Shown here piece after piece: positions 20,730 to 42,825 of a DNA stretch of 64,000 bases. The position numbers and the translations under genes are program-made. The notes beneath the pieces are model-generated. The model made no database searches. It saw nothing but the letters and a program-made list of their open reading frames with translations, and was not told where the DNA came from. Every line of letters begins with the position of its first letter. The first letter of the stretch is position 1. The stretch covers positions 11,881-75,880 of the forward strand of contig JBAZZY010000010.1 in the NCBI GenBank assembly GCA_041658565.1. The letters run 5' to 3'. The DNA comes from Actinomycetota bacterium. Lineage in GTDB: Bacteria; Actinomycetota; AC-67.

Positions 20730-23303
20730 TCATCTCGCGGCGGGACCGGCGAGCGCGAGGTGCGGGGCGTATGTCCGGTCCAAACGGGCGTCACTGTGCA
20801 CACGCGCCGGCCAGGTCTGGTCCAGAACCGCAGCGATGTGCTCGGCGGCGAGCGGCTTGCTCAGCAAGTAGCCCTGCGCGACGTCGCATCCCAGGGCGCT
20901 CAGTCGGTTCCACGCAAGCTCGGTCTCGACTCCCTCCGCAACGACGCGAAGACCGAGCGTCCGTCCAAGGTCGATGATCGAACGCACGATAACGGCGTCG
21001 TCCTCGTCGGCCGTCATGCCCATGACGAACGAGCGATCGATCTTGATCTCGTCTACAGGCAGTCGCTGCAGATACGACAGAGAGGAATACCCGGTGCCGA
21101 AGTCGTCGATCGAGATCGCAATCCCCATCGAACTCAACCGGGACAGGGTGCCGATCGATCGCGCCGGGTCGGTCATGATGTTCGTCTCGGTGACCTCGAG
21201 AGTGAGCGACGACGGATGAACTCCGGCGTCACGCAGGCGTCGCGCGATCTGATCCGGGAGCCCTTGATCCAGCAGCGTTCGTGCGGAGAGGTTGACGGCC
21301 ACACTCAGGTGGCGCCCGGCCGCCGACCACTTGGCGGATTGGCGAAGCGCGGCATCGAGCACCCAGTAGGTCAACGGACCGATCAAGCCGGTCTGCTCGG
21401 CGAGCGGAATGAAGTCGTCCGGCGAGACGAGGCCGCGACGGGGATGATTCCAGCGCACGAGCGCTTCGACGCCGGTGACCACGCCGCTGTCGATATCGGC
21501 CTTCGGCTGGAAGAACAGCATCAGCTCGTCCGATTCGATCGCATGCCGCAACTCGCCGACCAGGGCCAGCCGCGCGGGACTGTAGGGGTCGCGCTCGGGC
21601 GCGTAGATCTGCGCGCCGGCCTGCTCGCCCTTCGCGAAGTACATGGCGACGTCGGCGCGCTGCATCAAGGTGTCGGAGTCCTCACCGTGTTCGGGATACA
21701 GCGCGATGCCGATGCTCGCGCCGACGGTGATCGTAACCTCCTGCAGAACGATGGGCTGCTCGAGTGTGGCGCGCACGGCCTCGGCGACGCGCAGAGCGTC
21801 GACGGTGTCGGAAAGCCTCGGCAGGACGACGGCGAACTCGTCGCCTCCCAGCCTGGCAACGGTGTCACCTTCTCGCAACGAACCACGCAACCGGCGCGCC
21901 ATCTCCTGCAACAGCAGATCTCCGTTGTGATGGCCGAGTGTGTCGTTGACTTCCTTGAAACGATCCAGATCGATCATCATGATGGCGACTTGGTCTCCGG
22001 CGCGCGCGGCGGCCAGGACCGCTTGCCGCGTGCGATCACGGAGCAGCGTTCGATTAGGCAGGCCGGTCAGCGCGTCGTGAAGGGCTTGATGCTGGTTCTG
22101 CTCTGCCTGGATCTTGAGCCGATCCACGAGTTCGCCGTTGTGAACCATCGCGCTCGCGTGATTGGCAAACGTTTCGAAGAGCTTCAGGTCCTCGTGGTCG
22201 AAAGTGCCGACGTCCCCGAGGCGGTTGCGGACCATGATCGTTCCGGCAACCTTGTTCGCGACGTACAGCGGCGCCACCATCGCGTCGCGGATCCCCTGCG
22301 ACTCGAAATGCTCACGGAGGCGCTCGTTCTTGATCGGGCGAGGTATCAGCACCGCCTGCGCTTCCGACGCAACACGCGCCCACACGCCCTCGCCGGGATC
22401 AGGCCGCGCGGGCTCGGTAACGACATCGCCACCGTCGGCCCGGACGTACGTGCTCGTCGCTTCATGCTCCTCGTTCGCAAAGGCGACAACCTCCGCCGAT
22501 TCCGCATTGAACATCGCGCAGAGTTGCCGCAGTATCTCGGGGATGATGGAGCCCTCTTCGAGGGGCTTCTCGACGATGCGCGTCGAGTCGTAGAGAAGCT
22601 CGAGACTTCCGTACCGCTGCCGGGTCGTGACGTACGCGCGGTAGGTGACGATCATGACGGCGGCCGCGATCGTCAGCAGCCATGCCGCGCGCGAGTCGTG
22701 CCAGATCACCGTTGCAGCCAGAAGCGCAAGGCCGGTATTGGTCGCGGTGGCAACCAGCCCGAGTCCCGGGAGACCGCGAAGGGCATGCCACACCAATCGT
22801 CCTTCGAGCAGCGAAACCGCGAGAGTGATCATCAATGCCGACGCGAGATCGATCGTGAGCGTGGCGCCGAGCGCGGCCGCCCACCACCGGGGCCCGAGGG
22901 GCTCGGAGGCACTCGCGAAGCACTGGAAGACGACGACGGCCAGCGTGGTACCGATCGCGTACTGGCTCAGGTTGAAGACGAACTTGACCAGCGGTTGCCT
23001 GCGGTGGATCGCGAGCGCCACCGCTGATCCGGTGACGAGGGCCAAGATCAGCTCCGACGGCGGAGCGAAGAGCAATCCCAGGACGATCGGCAATTCGCTG
23101 ATCGAGAACGAGTGCGTGTCCCTGCGGACGTGCACATGCACGGCGAAGATCTCAGCCAGGCAGAACATCGCCGCAAGGAGCGTCCAGTGGATCCGGACGG
23201 GGGCACCGACCGGCGCCAACCCGCGGGTAACCCACACGTAGCCGGCCGCGGCAAGACAAGCCAAGAGTACGTTCAGGATCCAGACCCGGCGCGAACCGCA
23301 CAT
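20730..23303 (-). CDS. Membrane-bound GGDEF-EAL protein (diguanylate cyclase/phosphodiesterase) with N-terminal polytopic sensor domain and GAF-like linker
   Basis: Six or more TM helices. RLGGDEFAVVLP (GGDEF). EALVRW…DDFGTGYSSL (EAL). The N-terminal TM domain contains RRQPLVKFVFNLSQYAIG, homologous to the histidine kinase at 37795..39693. Confidence 0.85.
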   Translation of the reverse strand: MCGSRRVWILNVLLACLAAAGYVWVTRGLAPVGAPVRIHWTLLAAMFCLAEIFAVHVHVRRDTHSFSISELPIVLGLLFAPPSELILALVTGSAVALAIHRRQPLVKFVFNLSQYAIGTTLAVVVFQCFASASEPLGPRWWAAALGATLTIDLASALMITLAVSLLEGRLVWHALRGLPGLGLVATATNTGLALLAATVIWHDSRAAWLLTIAAAVMIVTYRAYVTTRQRYGSLELLYDSTRIVEKPLEEGSIIPEILRQLCAMFNAESAEVVAFANEEHEATSTYVRADGGDVVTEPARPDPGEGVWARVASEAQAVLIPRPIKNERLREHFESQGIRDAMVAPLYVANKVAGTIMVRNRLGDVGTFDHEDLKLFETFANHASAMVHNGELVDRLKIQAEQNQHQALHDALTGLPNRTLLRDRTRQAVLAAARAGDQVAIMMIDLDRFKEVNDTLGHHNGDLLLQEMARRLRGSLREGDTVARLGGDEFAVVLPRLSDTVDALRVAEAVRATLEQPIVLQEVTITVGASIGIALYPEHGEDSDTLMQRADVAMYFAKGEQAGAQIYAPERDPYSPARLALVGELRHAIESDELMLFFQPKADIDSGVVTGVEALVRWNHPRRGLVSPDDFIPLAEQTGLIGPLTYWVLDAALRQSAKWSAAGRHLSVAVNLSARTLLDQGLPDQIARRLRDAGVHPSSLTLEVTETNIMTDPARSIGTLSRLSSMGIAISIDDFGTGYSSLSYLQRLPVDEIKIDRSFVMGMTADEDDAVIVRSIIDLGRTLGLRVVAEGVETELAWNRLSALGCDVAQGYLLSKPLAAEHIAAVLDQTWPARVHSDARLDRTYAPHLALAGPAAR

Positions 23304-23306
23304 AAC

Positions 23307-25055
23307 CTAATCCCAGCTCCTCGCGGACCAGCCCTCGTCGGACCACGACCGGCCCGACCAGGATCTGCCCGACCAGGATCTGCCCGACCAGGACCTGCCG
23401 GACCAGGTTCGGCCGTCCCAGGTGTTGTCCGACCACGTGCGGCCCGACCACGTGCGGCCGGCGAAATCGTTCGCCGTCCAAGTCGCTCCCGCCCAGTCGA
23501 CGGTGCGCCAGACGCCACCCACCCACGTGACGCCTCGCAGGAACTGGTCGGTCCACGCCACGGCATCCCAGCCGACGCCGAAGAGGTCCTGCTCCCCGGT
23601 CAGTGCGACCGTGCCGTCCACGATGCGCAGTGAGCCGCGCGCCGCCTCAAGCGACCCAAGTCCCGTCGCGGGAACAAAGAGCTGCTTGGTCAGCAGCGCC
23701 GAAGGCGTCGTCTTGCCGAGCGCGACCTTGAGGTCGAGTGCACCCGCGCCTTGCGCCGCAACGGTTGCGCTCGGGATCTTCGTCGCCGATTGCCTCAATA
23801 GGGCCTTGATTTGATCCGGCGAGATGGTGGGCCGCTGTTGGAGGATCAAGGCTGCGGCGCCGGAAACGACGGCGGTCGCTTGTGAAGATCCGCTGCCTCG
23901 GAAGAACCGCCCACCGACGCGCGCAGATGGGAAGAGCTGGTCGATGTCCGATGCCGGGACGCGCAGTGACGCGACCGAAGTCCCCGGAGCAACGACGTCG
24001 GGGTTGCGCACACCGTCTCCCCGGCTGGACCACGACGGGATCGTCGCGTCGCTCGTGCCGTACAGCCCGCCCGGATCGGTGTACCCACCCACCGCGATGA
24101 CGTAAGGATCAATGGCCGGGTTCGTCATCCCGATGCTCTCGCCGCCGCGATTGCCGGCAGACACCACGACGACCAGACCCTTGCGCCAGGCAACTTCGGC
24201 CGCATAGGACAGCGGGTCAAGAAGGTAGCTCTGCAGACCGTAGCTTCCGAACGAAAGGTTCAAGACTCGGATGTTCAGACCGTCGCTCCTTGTGTGGTTG
24301 ACGACCCAGTCGATGCCGGCGATCACTTGAGAAACGTCCGTCCACCCTTGCGCGTCGGCCACCTTCACGCTCACAACGCGCGCGTCGGGAGCGATGCCGA
24401 GGAAGCGACTGGTGTTGCCGGCCTTCACCGCCGTGGCCGAATCGCGTCCGGCGATGATGCCCGCCATGTGCGTGCCGTGACCGAACGCATCTTTGTTGCG
24501 TAGGTTCGGCGCCTGCGACTCCACGGAGAAGTCCGGACCGTAGACAACCTTTCCGGCGTCGTTGAGGCCTTGCACGTTCGCAACGCCGGAGTCGATCAAC
24601 GCAACGTCGACTCCTTTGCCCGTGAAACCCTTGGCCCAGTAGCTGCTCGCGCCGGTGACTTTCTGCGCGATCGTGTAAAGGGAATATGGATCGGTGCCGG
24701 CGTCGTACCCGTTGGTCGCGGCGGCAAGCTGCACACGCCCGTTGCGGGTGACCGCCAAGATCCCGGACTCGGCGCTGAGACGATCCAACGACGCGCGCGG
24801 CACCTCGGCGACGAGGCCGCCGATAATGCCGATGCGGCGGACGGTGATGCCGCCTTCGCGCTCAACCGCGCGCTCGGCAGCCTGGGGCGATCCCGGAAGC
24901 GTACGCACGATCACCGAGACCATGTCCACGGTCGACGACGATCCGGACCGCGTGTCGCCCCAGGAACTGATCGCCAAGACGGCGACAATCAGTGAGGCTG
25001 CAACCGCGGACCTGCGACTCAGGCGCCTCTTCCCCATCCGTGCGTTCGCGTCCAT
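23307..25055 (-). CDS. Secreted S8 subtilase with I9 propeptide and C-terminal (G-R-S/T-W-S)n tryptophan-pentapeptide repeat tail
   Basis: Signal peptide MGKRRLSRRSAVAASLIVAVLA. Triad contexts VALIDSGV, HGTHMAGIIAG, GSSQATAVVSGAAALI. C-terminus GRTWSGRTWSDNTWDGRTWSGRSWSGRSWSGRSWSGRSWSDEGWSARSWD. The ORF extends to 25151. Confidence 0.8.
   Translation of the reverse strand: MDANARMGKRRLSRRSAVAASLIVAVLAISSWGDTRSGSSSTVDMVSVIVRTLPGSPQAAERAVEREGGITVRRIGIIGGLVAEVPRASLDRLSAESGILAVTRNGRVQLAAATNGYDAGTDPYSLYTIAQKVTGASSYWAKGFTGKGVDVALIDSGVANVQGLNDAGKVVYGPDFSVESQAPNLRNKDAFGHGTHMAGIIAGRDSATAVKAGNTSRFLGIAPDARVVSVKVADAQGWTDVSQVIAGIDWVVNHTRSDGLNIRVLNLSFGSYGLQSYLLDPLSYAAEVAWRKGLVVVVSAGNRGGESIGMTNPAIDPYVIAVGGYTDPGGLYGTSDATIPSWSSRGDGVRNPDVVAPGTSVASLRVPASDIDQLFPSARVGGRFFRGSGSSQATAVVSGAAALILQQRPTISPDQIKALLRQSATKIPSATVAAQGAGALDLKVALGKTTPSALLTKQLFVPATGLGSLEAARGSLRIVDGTVALTGEQDLFGVGWDAVAWTDQFLRGVTWVGGVWRTVDWAGATWTANDFAGRTWSGRTWSDNTWDGRTWSGRSWSGRSWSGRSWSGRSWSDEGWSARSWD
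23310..23459 (-). repeat. 15-bp-period tandem repeat encoding 10 Trp-pentapeptides (GR[ST]WS) at the subtilase C-terminus
   Basis: …cccgaccaggatctgcccgaccaggatctgcccgaccaggacctgccggaccagg… Strict 15-nt periodicity. Confidence 0.85.
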
Positions 25056-25202
25056 AGCAATGCCTCCGCGTCGTTCTCGTACGTCTATGTACGGAGCCCA
25101 CCAATCCCGGAAACATGGCCTCCCGCCGTCATTCCACGCGCGCGCAGCCACTACGCGAGCTATCGATCTCTCTAACTACGCCGGCGTGATCGCTCCATGC
25201 TT

Positions 25203-25276: not shown

Positions 25277-25969
25277 GTGGTCCGTGTGCGCATCCTGCTG
25301 ATCGACGAAGACGCATCCACGATCGAGTTGTGCCGACTCGCCTTCGAGTCGGAACGGCATGACCTAAGGGCCGCGCCCGCGGATCGCGATGCCATTCGTG
25401 CGGCGGTCGCTCCTCACGTCGATGCGATCATCCTCGACAGTGCGTCCACCGGCATCCGAGACGGAGAAGACCTGATCGAGATGCTGCGATCCATCGAGGG
25501 CGCGCGCGCGACGCCGTTCGTCGTACTGACGGCGCGCGCGCGTCTGGAAGACGAGATCCGAGCGTGGGAAAGAGGTTCGGATGCGTTTGTGCGCAAGCCG
25601 TTCTCACCCGTCGGCCTGATCGACGTGGTAGTCGCGGTCGCCGACATGACGCCGAAGGAGCGGTGCGTGAGGAGAAACGCGATGCTCCGCCGAGTCCGAG
25701 CCGTGCACGATCGAGTCGCATGGGCCCGTGAGGAGCGAAGGATGCACGCGGGGCTGGGATCCCTTACTCCGGTCGAGCGTCGCGTCGCGAATCTGGTCGT
25801 GGAAGGCGTGCGCCTCAAGCCGGCTTGCGCGCGCCTCGGCGTCGCGGAAGGCACGTACTGGGCCCACAAAGGCGCCATCCGCCGGAAGCTCTCCGTCCCG
25901 CGCAACGAACCACTCGAGTCATTCCTGCGTCGCCTGGGATCGCCTTCAGAGTGTCAACGCGTCGGCTGA
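25277..25969 (+). CDS. Two-component response regulator, receiver plus LuxR/GerE-type HTH (NarL/FixJ family); GTG start
   Basis: Receiver-like N-terminus (RILLIDED…). C-terminal HTH LTPVERRVANLVVEGVRLKPACARLGVAEGTYWAHKGAIRRKL. Confidence 0.8.
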   Translation: MVRVRILLIDEDASTIELCRLAFESERHDLRAAPADRDAIRAAVAPHVDAIILDSASTGIRDGEDLIEMLRSIEGARATPFVVLTARARLEDEIRAWERGSDAFVRKPFSPVGLIDVVVAVADMTPKERCVRRNAMLRRVRAVHDRVAWAREERRMHAGLGSLTPVERRVANLVVEGVRLKPACARLGVAEGTYWAHKGAIRRKLSVPRNEPLESFLRRLGSPSECQRVG

Positions 25970-37794: not shown

Positions 37795-39693
37795 CTAGCC
37801 GGCGGGGTCGGACTCCGCCCGCTCCGGCGGCACGGCCGGCCGAGGCGGCTGAGCCGGCAAGGCTTCAGCCGGGTCTCCCGGCGCGCGCGGGATCTGGGGG
37901 AGGTCGGAACGCCGGCGCTGCGGAAGCGCCGGCGCAGCGGCCGAAACCGGCAGCAACACGGTGAACGTGCTCCCACTGCCCAACTCACTTTCCAACTGGA
38001 CCGACCCGCCCATCGCCAGCGCAAGTTGTCGCACGATGAACAGCCCGAGGCCTGCTCCGCCGGTCTCCATGCGCAAAGGGTCCTCGAGACGCTTGAATTT
38101 CTCGAAGATCTCTTCAGTGCGGTCCGGCGGAATGCCCCGACCCTCGTCGCGCACTCTGATCTGTATCCACTTCCCCGTCTGCTCAGCCTCGACGTCGACC
38201 GGAGCCCCATCGTCGGAGAACTTCACGGCGTTAGAGACCAGGTTGGCAACGACCTGCTCGATTCGAATCGCATCACCCAGGACCGTGAGGTCCTCCGCCG
38301 CCTGAAAGCGGAACTCCCGCGAGGGGTGCGAGACGCGGAACGACCGCAGCGCGCGCTCGACCACCGGAACGACCGCAACCGGTTGCCGATTGACCTCCGG
38401 CATCCGCCGCTCGTCGGTGTTCGCGATCCGCGACGCCAGCAGCATGTCCTCAACCAGCCGCGCCATGTGATCGGTCCGCTCCAGAATGGACTGCACGGCT
38501 TCGCGGCGACGCTCGCTCGGCAAATCGTCCATGCGGCGAAGCAACAACGACGCGTATCCCTTGATCGGCGTGAGCGGAGTCCGCAACTCGTGCGAGACCG
38601 TCGAGAAGAAGTCGTCCTTCAACCGATCGACTTCGCGCTGCCGGGTCACGTCGGTGACGACCAAGACATCAAAGGTCAGCTCTCCGCGCTCGTCGAACCC
38701 AGGTCCGTGTTGAACGCGCAGCCAACGCGGAGTCCCGTCGGCAGCGATGATCTCGATGTCGACCGGCTCGCCCTCAGCGGAAACGTCGATCGTAAGCCAC
38801 TGGCCGAAGACACCCTTGCCTCGCAGCAGATAGGACAGCGCTTTGCCGGTCGCTTCCTCGCGCGACACGCCGGTCGCGCGCTCCATCGAAGGGCTCCACA
38901 AAAGGACGGCCCCCGACGCATCGGCAAGCACGATCCCTTCGCTCGAATGCTCCAGAATCCGGCCGAGCTTGGTGGACTCCTCCTCCATCTTGCGCGACAG
39001 TTCCTTCTCTTTGACCCAGCCTCCAAATGCCAGGTGCAGAGCAAGCGTCGGGGCGAGAACGGCCGGCAACAACTCGGGCCGCGTCAGATACAGGGACACC
39101 GCCACCATCCCGACCGCCGAGTTGCCAAGACCGAGGGAGAACGACATCCCCCCCTCCTCCGCGAGAACCTTCCGCAGCGGACGATCGGTCGTCGCGGCGA
39201 TGATGGCCGAGATCGTCACCAAGTTGCCGGCCGTGAAGATCGCCATCCCGGCCACGATCGCAAGCAACCCGGCCGTCGAATCGAAGTCCCCACCGCCGAA
39301 GGTGTGGTACAGCCCGATGGCCGGGACGATCCCGACCGCGTACTGACCCAGGTTGAAGATGAACTTAACTAGTGGCCGGCGCCGAATCACGAGCGCCACG
39401 GCGAGCCCGCCGATCGAAACCAACGCCGCCATCGAGGCCGGCAGCAGCACGATGTCGGCAACGACCGCCAGTTCGAACAACGTGAGCATCTCGGCCGACC
39501 GGCCGTGGCGATAGCGGATCGCGACGAGTTCCGACACTGCCGTCAAGCCGAGCAGAAGCCCGGCCTGATGCGCCGATGTCCCCGAGAACGACGGCGGATC
39601 GGCGAGACACGCGGCCGCCAAGGCAACGGCCCCGCCGATCGACACTGCCCAGATGAGAAGAGTTGTGGCTTGTAGCTGTCTCCCCCGAGTCAC
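37795..39693 (-). CDS. Membrane sensor histidine kinase: polytopic N-terminal domain (paralogous to the GGDEF-EAL protein N-terminus), PAS-like, HisKA, HATPase
   Basis: [18 protein letters not shown] in the TM domain. H-box [19 protein letters not shown] boxes. Pro-rich C-terminal tail. Confidence 0.85.
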
Positions 39694-39702
39694 GAGTGCA
39701 GC

Positions 39703-41379
39703 CTACCCCCAGCCGTCTGCATCCCAGCGACGGGCGTCCCAGCGGCGTGCGTCCCACTGGCCGGCATCCCAACGCCTGGCGTCCCAGCGGCGTGCATCCC
39801 AGCGGCGTGCGTCCCAACGGCGCGCGTCCCAACGGCGCGCGTCCCAGCGGCGTGCGTCCCAACGCCTGGCCGCCCACTGCCTGGCCGCCCACTGGCGCGC
39901 GGCCCACTGCCTGGCCGCCCACTGGCGCGCGGCCCACTGCCTGGCCGCCCACTGGCGCGCGTCCCAATCGTTCAAGTCCCAACGACGGGCGTCCCAGCGA
40001 CGCGCTGCCCACTCCTGCGCCCCGTCGGCTCGGCTTCGGACCCACTCCGCATCGAGCCCGCGCGGCATCCACGGCTTGTCGAGTTCGCCGAGATCGGGAA
40101 CCGGCGGAAGCTCCGGCATTTCTCCATCGAAGAGGACTGCTTCGTTCGCGTCGACCTCGCCGGCTCCGACCGAGTCGGGGTCGCCGTCGGACACGTCCGC
40201 TGCCGTCGCCTGCATTAACGCCTTGACTTCGTCCGGCGACAGTTCAGGCTTTGCTTGCAGGATGAGCGCAGCCGCACCGGCGGCAGCCGCCGAGGACATG
40301 CTCGTCCCCGAGCCCCTGAAGTATGCGTCGTCCACGCGTGCCGACGGGTACTCCTCGTCGATCGTCGAGCCCGGGGCGCGAAGTGAGACGAGGTGCTCGC
40401 CCGGCGCAGCGATGTCGGGCTTCTCGTCGCCCCATCGCGTCGGACCGCGGCCTGAGTATTCCGAAACCGTGTCGTCGCCCTGGGAACCGGTCGCGTGGTC
40501 GTCAACCGAACCGGCCGTCAACAGCACCGGGTCTTCGCCCGGAGAAGCAATCGTCTTCGCGTCGGGACCCTCGTTGCCGGAGGGAACGACAACTACGATC
40601 CCGCGCGCCCACAACTCGCGCAACGCGTTGGTCAGCGGATCGAGTTCCGGCGGCAACGGCGACTCGGAGTGCAGCGCGAGCAACACGACGCCCACGTTGA
40701 ACCGGTTGGCCGAGACGTCTACGAGCTGGATCCCCGCCAGCACCTGTCCGAGACTCGTCATCCCCGAGCGATCCGCGACCTTGACCGACATCAAGTTCGC
40801 CTCGGGAGCAACCCCGACGTACTTCCCGTCGGACGATGCCCCGTTCCCGGCGATGATGCCCGCCTGGAACGTGCCGTGTCCGTAGGTGTCTTCGAGACTC
40901 CGCTCTTTGGTGAAGTTGGCGCGCGCAACCACGCGGCCACGAAGGTCGGGGACGTCGGCGATGCCTGTATCGATCAGCGCCACCGTGACACCGCGGCCGG
41001 TGATCTCCCGACTCCACAGTGCCGGCGCGCCGACGGCTTGCGGGTACGCCGAGACGAGTGCGTCGCCGTACGATGCGCTCTGCAAGTGCAGGGTTCGGTC
41101 GGGAACCACAATGGCGCGCGCGGACAGTTCGTCCATGCGAGATTCGGGCACGCGCGCAGAGACGCCGCCGATGATTGGCAGAACGTTGTCGATCTCGCCG
41201 CGGGCTCCGAGAGTCAGATCAACCGCGGACGTAGCGTCGCGGCTCATCACGATCACGGGGACGTAGCGGCCAAGAGCCTCCACAGCCGGCGCTCCGCCAA
41301 GAACCAGCAGCAACGCCACAACCATCGTCGTCGCCAGACGGCGAACTCGATGCTGCTCCGCAAACACGAGCGTCGTCAT
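39703..41379 (-). CDS. Secreted S8 subtilase with I9 propeptide and about 21-unit C-terminal (A-R-R/Q-W-D/A)n tryptophan-pentapeptide repeat tail
   Basis: Signal peptide. Triad contexts VALIDTGIADV, YGHGTFQAGIIAG, GTSMSSAAAAGAAALI. C-terminal about 105 aa: …RRWDARRWDLNDWDARQWAARQWAARQWAAR…RRWDARRWDARRWD…. Start overlaps the stop of the upstream receiver gene by 4 bp. Confidence 0.85.
   Translation of the reverse strand: MTTLVFAEQHRVRRLATTMVVALLLVLGGAPAVEALGRYVPVIVMSRDATSAVDLTLGARGEIDNVLPIIGGVSARVPESRMDELSARAIVVPDRTLHLQSASYGDALVSAYPQAVGAPALWSREITGRGVTVALIDTGIADVPDLRGRVVARANFTKERSLEDTYGHGTFQAGIIAGNGASSDGKYVGVAPEANLMSVKVADRSGMTSLGQVLAGIQLVDVSANRFNVGVVLLALHSESPLPPELDPLTNALRELWARGIVVVVPSGNEGPDAKTIASPGEDPVLLTAGSVDDHATGSQGDDTVSEYSGRGPTRWGDEKPDIAAPGEHLVSLRAPGSTIDEEYPSARVDDAYFRGSGTSMSSAAAAGAAALILQAKPELSPDEVKALMQATAADVSDGDPDSVGAGEVDANEAVLFDGEMPELPPVPDLGELDKPWMPRGLDAEWVRSRADGAQEWAARRWDARRWDLNDWDARQWAARQWAARQWAARQWAARQWAARQWAARRWDARRWDARRWDARRWDARRWDARRWDARRWDAGQWDARRWDARRWDADGWG
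39706..40020 (-). repeat. 15-bp-period tandem repeat (about 21 units) encoding the Trp-pentapeptide tail
   Basis: …gcgtcccagcggcgtgcgtcccaacggcgcgcgtcccaacggcgcgcgtcccagcggcg… Strict 15-nt period with unit variants (cagcggcgtgcgtcc / cactgcctggccgcc / cactggcgcgcggcc). Confidence 0.9.
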
Positions 41380-41756
41380 GCCGCCACCCCCGACGTCAGA
41401 TCGTGGACAACGTTGATCAGGTCTTCGGGCTCGAACGGCTTATTCATGTAGTAGTGACAGCCGGCGCTCCAGCCCTTCCATGTGGAGTCGGGATCGTCGA
41501 GCGCGGTCAGCATCACGACGGGGAGTTCTCGAGTGCTTTCCTGGGCGCGGATCTTCTCGAGTACAGCGAACCCGTCCATGCCCGGCATCATCACGTCGAG
41601 CACAACAAGGCTCGGAGTGCGAACACGGATGCGCTCGAGCGCGGTGGCACCATCGCCCACCGCCTCGACCTCATAACCTTCCATCTCCAGCGTGTGCTGG
41701 AGCAGTGTTCGGGTGGCGAGGTTGTCCTCCACGACCAAGATCCTCGGACTACTCAT
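41376..41756 (-). CDS. Single-domain response regulator (CheY-like receiver, no output domain)
   Basis: MSSPRILVVEDN…LVVLDVMMPGMDGFAVL…VVMLTA…KPF has the receiver aspartate and lysine contexts. Confidence 0.8.
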   Translation of the reverse strand: MSSPRILVVEDNLATRTLLQHTLEMEGYEVEAVGDGATALERIRVRTPSLVVLDVMMPGMDGFAVLEKIRAQESTRELPVVMLTALDDPDSTWKGWSAGCHYYMNKPFEPEDLINVVHDLTSGVAA

Positions 41757-41925
41757 CGTCGTCCCCTGTGTCCGCCAAGACCGGCAAAAGCTGCCTGTCA
41801 CTGGTGTATATATCGGCGCTCTTCGCGAATCCCTCCAGACCAGGAGCGGTGCTAAATGAGCGACACGAAATGACTAGAAGAGCGGGGACTTCGGTCGGTT
41901 TCGGACGAAATCGCGGAAGCGAGGA

Positions 41926-42825
41926 CTACTCCGAGCGAAGCAGCGCAAGGTCCGCGAGGTCGTAGCGATCGAAGTCGTCGGGCGGCCCGCCGGAAAGAAG
42001 GGCACCGATCGATATGTCTTCTATCGCCCAGAACATCACCGACGTCTGATATCGCGAGTGGTATCGGTGGTCGGGATCCTCATGCGCGTACTTGCTGGTG
42101 TAGCCGAGGTTCACCAGCGCGAGCAAGTGCCCGACCTCGTGCGTGAGCACCGACCGCTCGATCGCCCCCGGCTGCACGAGTGAGGTGGAGGCCGAAGAAA
42201 TCTGGTCGGCGAAGATCGCCGCTCCCGAGGCTTCGTACGCCACTCCGAGAGTCGAGTCATCCCCCTGCAAGGTTCCGTTCAAGTACACGATCCACATCGT
42301 TGCCGTCTGCGCCGACGAGTGGATCGTTCGGTACCGGCGCTCGAGGCGCCCGATCTCTTCAATGGAGTATGCATCCGACGTCGGCGAGAACTCCGGGCCG
42401 ACGCGAAGCGTGATTCCACCCGGCTTGTCGGCCTCCCGGCGCAAGATCGAAAGGACGTGATCCAACGCGGCCTGCGAAGGGCGGCTGCCGCTGGTGTAGG
42501 CGACCTGGATCTCCAATGCGCGCGCCGGCGACGCGCGCAGGTACGACCGCGCCATCTCACCCACCCCGCCGGAGTCCTGGTAGACGCGGCTGGAAGGCGT
42601 CGAAGACGCCACTCCGGTGCCAGTGCCGCGCGCCGCAGTGGGAGACGGACCGACGCGCGCCGGCGATGCCGCGGACGACCCGCCGGAGCGACGGGGTGAC
42701 GGAACACCCGAACCGTAACCAGCCGACGGCCCGGTCGGAGCCGCGCACGCCGTCAGAACCAACGCCGCTACGGCCGCAAGGCCGAGTGTCCGAAAGACCC
42801 GGGCGCGCGCCCCGATGACGCTCAT
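41926..42825 (-). CDS. Lipoprotein, putative zinc metallopeptidase (HExxH)
   Basis: Lipobox LVLTACAAP. HEVGHLLAL zincin motif with downstream acidic residues. Ser/Pro-rich linker. Confidence 0.5.
   Translation of the reverse strand: MSVIGARARVFRTLGLAAVAALVLTACAAPTGPSAGYGSGVPSPRRSGGSSAASPARVGPSPTAARGTGTGVASSTPSSRVYQDSGGVGEMARSYLRASPARALEIQVAYTSGSRPSQAALDHVLSILRREADKPGGITLRVGPEFSPTSDAYSIEEIGRLERRYRTIHSSAQTATMWIVYLNGTLQGDDSTLGVAYEASGAAIFADQISSASTSLVQPGAIERSVLTHEVGHLLALVNLGYTSKYAHEDPDHRYHSRYQTSVMFWAIEDISIGALLSGGPPDDFDRYDLADLALLRSE

Follow-up and report, generated by a model that had tools for sequence, protein, structure and literature searches.

This report concerns a tryptophan (Trp) pentapeptide repeat, and the gene that carries it, in a 64,000-nt stretch of contig JBAZZY010000010.1 from an Actinomycetota bacterium (the window, whose numbering is used for all coordinates). 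The repeat forms the C-terminal tail of a subtilisin-type peptidase of family S8, read on the minus strand, and the gene is followed directly by that of a sensor histidine kinase with a MASE9-type membrane domain. The original prediction had placed an array of about 21 Trp pentapeptide units at 39706-40020 with no strand stated; both the coordinates and the 21 Trp residues were confirmed, and the 15-bp array first noticed there proved to be coding on the minus strand (open reading frame (ORF) 41379..39703). That prediction included neither the identification of the array as an S8 protease tail, nor the second copy elsewhere in the window, nor the near-invariant pairing with a membrane sensor.

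The 21 Trp residues are spaced by exactly five positions (residues 457, 462 ... 557, i.e. W457-W557; window 39709-40011), and the protein terminates in W-G. The tail unit is W-[D/A]-A-R-[R/Q], which is the unit A-R-R/Q-W-D/A given originally, read in another phase. It occurs as WDARR (nine units), WAARQ (five), WAARR (two) and WDARQ, together with the irregular forms WDLND, WDAGQ and WDADG (one each), and the net charge of the tail is +13. Tandem Repeats Finder reported a period of 15 with 16.3 copies at 39722-39966 (77% matches, 0 indels). When the protein was shuffled 10,000 times, in-register Trp runs reached 5 at most, compared with the 21 observed, and a chance origin of the register is therefore excluded. 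The 15-mers had also been described as near-identical, which holds for the QWAAR block only; six different 15-mers, all synonymous, occur among the nine WDARR units, with switches between CGN and AGG codons for Arg. The repeat has therefore been kept at the protein level and is not a fresh DNA duplication; judged from this codon usage it is under protein-level selection, the peptide and not the DNA being conserved. Plus-strand ORFs across the array (39653-40885 and 39663-40226) were rejected as frame artefacts, and an Rfam scan of the whole window gave 0 matches.

The protein that carries the tail is exactly the same as NCBI MFA5890748.1 ('MAG: S8 family serine peptidase [Actinomycetota bacterium]'). 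Its N-terminus resembles a signal peptide, in which an RR n-region and a hydrophobic core are followed by A-V-E-A, and cleavage after AVEA is predicted as likely. Over residues 128-407, PF00082 (Peptidase_S8) scored 147 bits (cutoff 21.8; E 7e-43), and Asp137, His168, Ser360 and the oxyanion residue Asn269 are invariant among 85 aligned homologues. The propeptide and the catalytic domain were modeled by AlphaFold2 with a predicted local distance difference test score (pLDDT) above 90, and Foldseek matched pro-Tk-SP (PDB 3AFG, E 8.5e-32) and pro-subtilisins, the nearest solved structures, over ~400 columns. The protein is accordingly annotated here as a predicted exported and catalytically competent subtilisin-type (S8) protease of an uncultured actinobacterium. 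The propeptide and S8 domain are the parts that resemble the pro-subtilases Tk-SP and Tk-subtilisin (3AFG, 2E1P), which were the best matches by sequence (E 1e-48) as well as by fold; Tk-SP, however, ends in a folded C-terminal beta-jelly-roll, whereas the Trp repeat occupies that position here. The 558-residue sequence contains no Cys, and therefore no lipobox, no LPXTG motif and no C-terminal hydrophobic segment.

Identity as a mycosin, i.e. one of the subtilases of type VII secretion, was considered and rejected. TIGR03921 was the best NCBIfam match, but its 160.3 bits are below the cutoff of 278.75. Mycosins are likewise actinobacterial, envelope-associated S8 proteases, but the tail described here has no hydrophobic segment that could form their C-terminal transmembrane anchor, and no ESX genes are found among the neighbors, which are genes for a response regulator and the histidine kinase, guaA and an IMPDH-like gene.

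The main new result is the pairing of the protease with a sensor. From the gene orders compared, the gene of the Trp-tailed S8 protease is one half of a conserved gene pair with a MASE9-like sensor, and the two genes appear often to be translationally coupled. At the first locus the response regulator gene lies upstream of the S8 gene and the histidine kinase gene downstream, and the junctions in the window (ATGA, 9 nt and 3 nt) are listed in Table 1. PF20972 (MASE9) scored 28.8 bits in the histidine kinase (cutoff 24.3) and 18.1 bits, below that cutoff, in the GGDEF-EAL protein that is the partner of the second S8 protease; the N-terminal membrane domains of the two partners are homologous to each other (37% identity over 89 residues, E 2e-13). 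Regarding the individually inspected loci, a sensor gene was located directly downstream in 12 of 13, the exception being an archaeal protein, and a polytopic N-terminal membrane domain of ~230 residues was shared by all 11 partner sensors tested, whatever their output. Among 80 metagenome loci encoding relatives, the S8 3' end is complete and followed by 700 nt or more in 57. A MASE9-like ORF was detected directly downstream by hidden Markov model (HMM) in 56 of these 57, and inspection of the remaining one (L182) revealed a polytopic GAF-PAS-GGDEF-EAL protein at this position. Among the 47 of these loci with at least 2300 nt downstream, the output is GGDEF in 29 and a histidine kinase in 16. 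MASE9 was originally described as a membrane sensor with no known signal, whose outer loops are short and whose ligand probably binds within the membrane (bioRxiv 10.1101/2021.11.05.467447).

A second example is present in the window itself. The tandem-repeat scan of the whole window yielded another 15-bp array at 23337-23461, within the tail of a second S8 peptidase. The second S8-sensor locus (20730-25151) is, by homology, a paralogous copy of the protease-sensor pair, with an output in cyclic di-GMP (c-di-GMP) turnover instead of a kinase.

Table 1. Features of the two protease-sensor loci in the window
Feature	Position	Strand	Remarks
S8 peptidase gene	39703..41379	-	ORF; 558 aa + stop; identical to NCBI MFA5890748.1
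N-terminal signal peptide or signal anchor	41272..41379	-	aa (amino acids) 1-36; sequence; AlphaFold2 helix 8-35
N-terminal propeptide	41035..41271	-	~aa 37-115; subtilisin-propeptide-like beta-alpha-beta fold; AlphaFold2 pLDDT >90
Peptidase_S8 catalytic domain	40159..40998	-	aa 128-407; Pfam, homologue alignment, Foldseek
Pro/acidic linker between catalytic domain and repeat	40045..40158	-	aa 408-445; low pLDDT; sequence
Trp pentapeptide-repeat tail	39706..40044	-	aa 446-558, the last 113 residues of the 558-aa S8 peptidase
30-bp sub-repeat (two units, QWAAR-QWAAR)	39872..39966	-	Tandem Repeats Finder, 3.2 copies, 98% identity; site of the 30-bp indel between two assemblies
Receiver-only response regulator	41376..41801	-	TGA stop overlaps the S8 ATG (ATGA); start called in the sister contig corresponds to window 41756
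Sensor histidine kinase	37795..39693	-	MASE9-type polytopic membrane domain, PAS, HisKA, HATPase; starts 9 nt after the S8 stop
Second S8 peptidase with its own Trp tail	23307..25151	-	35% identical to the first; likely start 25055 (582 aa, P0277)
Tail of the second S8 peptidase	~23310-23576	-	10 Trp in register at 23313-23450; WSGRS/WSGRT units
Partner of the second S8 peptidase	20730..23303	-	MASE9-like membrane domain, GAF, GGDEF, EAL; starts 3 nt after the second S8 stop

The conservation of the repeat was examined in the best 120 of 4250 matches to the first S8 protein (40-98% identical). In-register Trp tails were present in 119 of the 120, with 5-42 Trp residues (median 20), and take the form (W-small-small-R-x)n. 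A logo of 2424 units showed W at position 1 (100%), A (33%), D (25%) or S (19%) at position 2, A (57%), G (22%) or S (13%) at position 3, R (74%) at position 4 and a variable residue, mostly S, Q, N or T, at position 5. The best homologues of the second S8 protein all carry Trp tails as well (120 of 120); their logo reads W, S (73%), G (85%), x, T/S, so that nothing but Trp and the pair of small residues following it is constant across both clades. Neighboring Trp residues are five positions apart in 97.9% of the pairs in the first family and in 98.6% in the second. Exactly one residue follows the last Trp in 107 of the 120 homologues, a conserved W-x C-terminus. The net charge is not conserved and ranges from -2 to +18 across the family.

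A search with the tail only (phmmer against 1.84 billion representative proteins, E up to 1e-3) gave 580 matches. Among the matches listed, 89 had at least 8 Trp in register, and 66 of these 89 were S8 peptidases according to a local HMM search; several of the non-S8 matches were, in our reading, short fragments or apparently spurious ORFs. The unit variants WDGIS, WDSVN, WSGNS, WGATS and WNALR were recovered, and the repeats built from them had no Pfam match. In some S8 proteins, including one from a Thermoplasmatota archaeon, the repeat is N-terminal to the catalytic domain. Taken together, these alignments define a large repeat class with the core W-small-small-x-x, represented here by W-[A/D/S]-[A/G/S]-R-x, which is attached mainly to S8 peptidases. 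The protein labelled as Thermoplasmatota (P0143; L129, 5001-6536) carries 22 WDASx units, placed after the signal sequence and ahead of the catalytic domain, and its gene has no adjoining sensor gene; the repeat thus occurs outside the bacteria and at another position in the protein. An S8 relative in L182 (1416-3155) has a degenerate tail with Tyr and other residues beside Trp (GWTSGTWYSTGWQTSRWY...), which may illustrate how the repeat decays or diversifies. A shark adhesion G-protein-coupled receptor G4 (P0122, XP_060688292.1) contains 93 in-register WNGQV units and is taken to be a convergent eukaryotic Trp pentapeptide array.

Genome contigs were also scanned with the DNA pattern (TGG N6 CG N4)x5. 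Among the matches listed, only L036 and L061 represented true Trp-tailed S8 genes; almost all of the remaining matches (scan L005-L124) were rejected as out-of-frame readings of unrelated 15-bp repeats. GC-rich genomes of unrelated phyla contain many 15-bp tandem repeats that read W-x-x-R-x in a non-coding frame only, and DNA-pattern searches for the motif are therefore dominated by false matches.

The length of the tail varies, as had been anticipated in the original prediction. An alignment of the window with L001, the version of this contig held by ENA, spans 13,677 columns and shows 0 mismatches and a single 30-bp gap, in which two QWAAR units are gone. Either a polymorphism in the population or a difference between the assemblies could account for the gap, and the unit count at the window locus is 19 or 21, depending on the assembly, the exact number being uncertain. 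Independent and stronger evidence for copy-number variation is the length range in the 90%-identity cluster P0085, 15 members of which have 12-21 Trp units and differ by whole pentapeptides at several places in the array. Different lineages have homogenized different units (WSGNT, WSGQS, WDGRV, WAAGN), which we read, from the aligned units, as suggesting concerted evolution by slippage or unequal exchange. The repeat is a clean natural case of slippage-driven length variation in a protein segment that would be surface-exposed.

Known families were searched in Pfam (2025 copy), NCBIfam (release 20), PDB sequences and 8 million full-text papers. The tail (residues 446-558) had no match in Pfam, NCBIfam or PDB sequences, and motif strings and keywords retrieved nothing relevant to the repeat or to the S8-sensor pairing from the searchable full-text literature, in agreement with the original prediction, in which the motif was not recognized as a described domain. 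A match of the tail to Pfam HC2 (histone-like) was below the cutoff and was rejected as compositional. W_rich_C (PF07483) and cell-wall-binding repeats such as CW_binding_1 matched neither the window tail (E up to 0.1) nor four other Trp tails (E up to 10), and the W_rich_C mentioned in PMC2605481 is a different domain. Because such matches are lacking in these libraries and in the searchable literature, the module is currently invisible to annotation, although thousands of actinobacterial proteins and some archaeal ones carry the Trp repeat.

In the full-length AlphaFold2 model the tail has a pLDDT of 31-50. Modeling of the tail only, with a register-anchored alignment of 32 tails, gave as the best model one long helix (residues 3-81, pLDDT 64-82 over ~60 residues), and the five models disagree (mean pLDDT 60, 49, 39, 37 and 35). 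A helix is unlikely to be the state shared by all tails, given the Gly-rich WSGxT units found in the second clade. With low confidence, these models suggest that the tail is non-globular and at best a weak long helix. The Wimley-White interfacial free energy per five residues is favorable in the second family (median -0.97 kcal/mol), close to zero in the first (median ~0) and unfavorable for the window tail (+0.65 kcal/mol).

Our tentative reading, to which we assign a probability of roughly 0.4, is that the tail is a non-globular, Trp-rich tether that holds the protease at the cell envelope beside its partner sensor, its binding and localization being predicted; the repeat probably belongs to an unstudied envelope-signaling module. 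After export of the protease, its tail would not adopt a globular fold; situated in the wall matrix or at the outer face of the membrane, it would serve as a tether that is multivalent and variable in length. No residue partitions into the membrane interface better than Trp, and Trp together with Arg is typical of membrane-interface binders. The Arg residues of the tail would add affinity for anionic lipids or polymers, and the tail would thereby keep an otherwise anchorless protease beside a sensor that itself has almost no extracytoplasmic domain. Replication slippage on the 15-bp units would shift the tail length, and hence reach or avidity, among close relatives. This reading is favored because no other anchor is evident, because Trp, with Arg in the first clade, is the typical composition of interface binders, because the interfacial energy of the second clade is favorable, and because a freely variable length is expected of multivalent weak binding. 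An anchoring role, which had been proposed originally, is plausible.

Several points weigh against the tether. Coding status, conservation, the association with S8 peptidases, the sensor pairing and the variation in copy number are shown here, but the location of the tail, its binding target and any link to the input of the sensor are what we infer. Given its unfavorable interfacial energy, binding of the window tail would need its charge of +13 and anionic partners, and family members do not share a common net charge. The hydrophobic helix at the N-terminus may itself escape cleavage and serve as a signal anchor, in which case no C-terminal anchor would be needed. The tail-only model is a long helix of intermediate pLDDT, and the strict five-residue register hints at a regular structure that AlphaFold2 may fail to model; weak, non-significant alignments to Qnr and DotG place Trp on the central Leu/Phe of their repeats. 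Finally, the gene pairing shows that protease and sensor go together, not that the tail mediates their association.

The proposed tether would have functional analogues. Choline-binding repeats and GW modules of Gram-positive proteins are C-terminal, Trp-rich tandem repeats of variable copy number that retain secreted enzymes at the envelope by multivalent weak binding. The tail would resemble them in position, Trp content, tandem arrangement and variable copy number, but their repeats are 20-80 residues long with defined folds and known ligands, whereas the unit here has five residues, no model match and no known ligand. On the side of the gene pair, LpqB with MtrAB, PepD with MprAB and HtrA with CssRS are cases of an exported protein or protease next to a two-component system to which it is thought to feed envelope information. 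An exported protease encoded beside a two-component system is found here as well, but differs from these in the S8 class of the protease, in the MASE9-like sensor domain and in the pairing also with c-di-GMP enzymes. Secreted enzymes with repeat tails, like accessory proteins that are coupled to sensors, are known kinds, with a real chance that the present case is something more distinct.

Among the alternatives, the one that survives best, although we consider it unlikely, is a regular solenoid, i.e. a relative of the pentapeptide-repeat beta-helix with a Trp core or Trp ladder that would bind a wall glycan, or the sensor, specifically. Like the pentapeptide repeat proteins (Qnr, MfpA, Rfr; PF00805, PF13599), the tail consists of long in-register arrays of tandem five-residue units, each with one dominant large hydrophobic residue surrounded by small ones; the exact register persists in ~98% of Trp neighbors, even in diverged units, and x-[T/S]-W-S-G of the second family resembles the pentapeptide-repeat motif [STAV][DN][LF][STR][G] with Trp as the central residue. 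PDB searches with the tail, a WSGNT-type tail and a tail profile gave nothing or non-significant pentapeptide-repeat matches, the profile alignments to Qnr (E ~0.2) and to the pentapeptide region of DotG (E 0.02) being those mentioned above; such E-values are not significant for a low-complexity query. The Pfam pentapeptide models did not match the window tail at E up to 0.1, nor, at E up to 10, three of the four other Trp tails (the second window copy and homologues), and in the fourth, which is a WDSVN variant, the score of 16 bits was below the cutoff of 38.

The differences in the unit point the same way. The central residue is Trp (100%) where pentapeptide repeat proteins have Leu or Phe, and the position two before it, which must be small (Ala) in those proteins, is Arg (74%) or Asn, Gln or Lys; the absence of the A(D/N)LXX consensus had been recognized from the outset. 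In addition, those proteins are stand-alone, cytoplasmic DNA mimics, whereas the Trp repeat is fused to a protease and predicted to be extracytoplasmic. AlphaFold2, which usually models pentapeptide-repeat proteins well, predicted no beta structure or beta-helix for the tail, full-length or tail-only, at low confidence throughout. The pentapeptide-repeat fold has a coil period at lags 4 and 8, where irregular units are not in excess, and the test for a four-unit super-period was negative; 45-bp DNA repeats are the probable source of a modest excess at lags 3 and 7. These results, together with the low pLDDT of the tail and the single weak helix on which the five tail-only models disagree, do not support the quadrilateral beta-helix with a Trp ladder that had been suggested for the array, nor do they speak decisively against it.

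A removable tail is a somewhat poorer candidate than the solenoid. In this case the tail would be a C-terminal pro-region, a pseudo-substrate or an inert spacer that aids export or inhibits the protease and is then degraded, with no role in binding. C-terminal extensions are cleaved on maturation in many subtilases, an analogy that would suit a tail which is modeled as low-confidence or disordered, varies freely in length and drifts between lineages at unit positions 4-5. An inert spacer, however, would need neither invariant, strictly spaced Trp over thousands of units nor the conserved W-x C-terminus, and the position of the repeat N-terminal to the catalytic domain in other S8 clades also argues against it.

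We regard it as improbable that the tail is a polyprotein of pentapeptide signals, cut from its own C-terminus by the protease, with the released Trp pentapeptides entering the membrane interface and being sensed by the MASE9-like domain. Subtilisin-type proteases release the Phr pentapeptides of Bacillus, and the S8 protease Kex2 releases tandem-repeat pheromones of fungi. By analogy with these precedents, pentapeptide units fused to an S8 protease could be such signals; the partner is a sensor with a presumed intramembrane ligand, its gene is almost invariably paired with that of the protease, and an RR pair precedes each Trp in the window clade. On the other hand, the units are heterogeneous within one protein and differ between lineages that have the sensor domain in common, a dibasic site is not generally kept (position 5 being mostly S/Q/N/T), copy number is polymorphic, and no export or modification genes are found nearby. 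That the array is non-coding or an assembly artefact, as the 30-bp difference between two assemblies of the same contig might suggest, can be dismissed, given a frame that is open through the whole array, synonymous variation that leaves the peptide unchanged and the same feature in hundreds of independent homologues.

Beyond the tether, a more far-reaching proposal, which we hold to be as unlikely as the solenoid, is that the Trp-repeat S8 protease and the MASE9-like sensor form a previously unrecognized, widespread signaling unit in which the repeat itself is the input element, either as a segment lying in the membrane interface that reports the state of the envelope to a sensor lacking an outer domain or, cleaved by the protease into Trp peptides, as the intramembrane ligand. 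If true, it would be the first candidate input for MASE9-type domains, and a new repeat fold or a functional disordered anchor would be defined. The near-invariant pairing in any case provides a concrete, testable handle on what MASE9-like sensors detect, and the partner sensors control two-component signaling and c-di-GMP turnover.

Some further genes were noted around the protease-sensor pairs. In three Frankiales/Mycobacteriales-like genomes (L002, L003, L126) the S8-kinase pair is located between enoyl-CoA hydratase and ABC1 kinase genes; no response regulator adjoins it, and genes for Zincin_2, a Lon_C-PDZ protease, MoaE and (in L002) WhiB occur nearby. Window positions 41926-42825 (minus strand) encode a 299-residue protein with a lipoprotein-type N-terminus (LTAC), an HEVGH zinc-protease motif and weak Reprolysin-like Pfam matches only. 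In L001, L004 and L125 an equal-sized gene with no Pfam match is found at the corresponding place, flanked by the IMPDH-like and response regulator genes. Divergent from the second S8 gene, positions 25277-25969 (plus strand) encode a regulator with a receiver domain and a weak LuxR-type helix-turn-helix domain, which may be the transcriptional arm of the second module.

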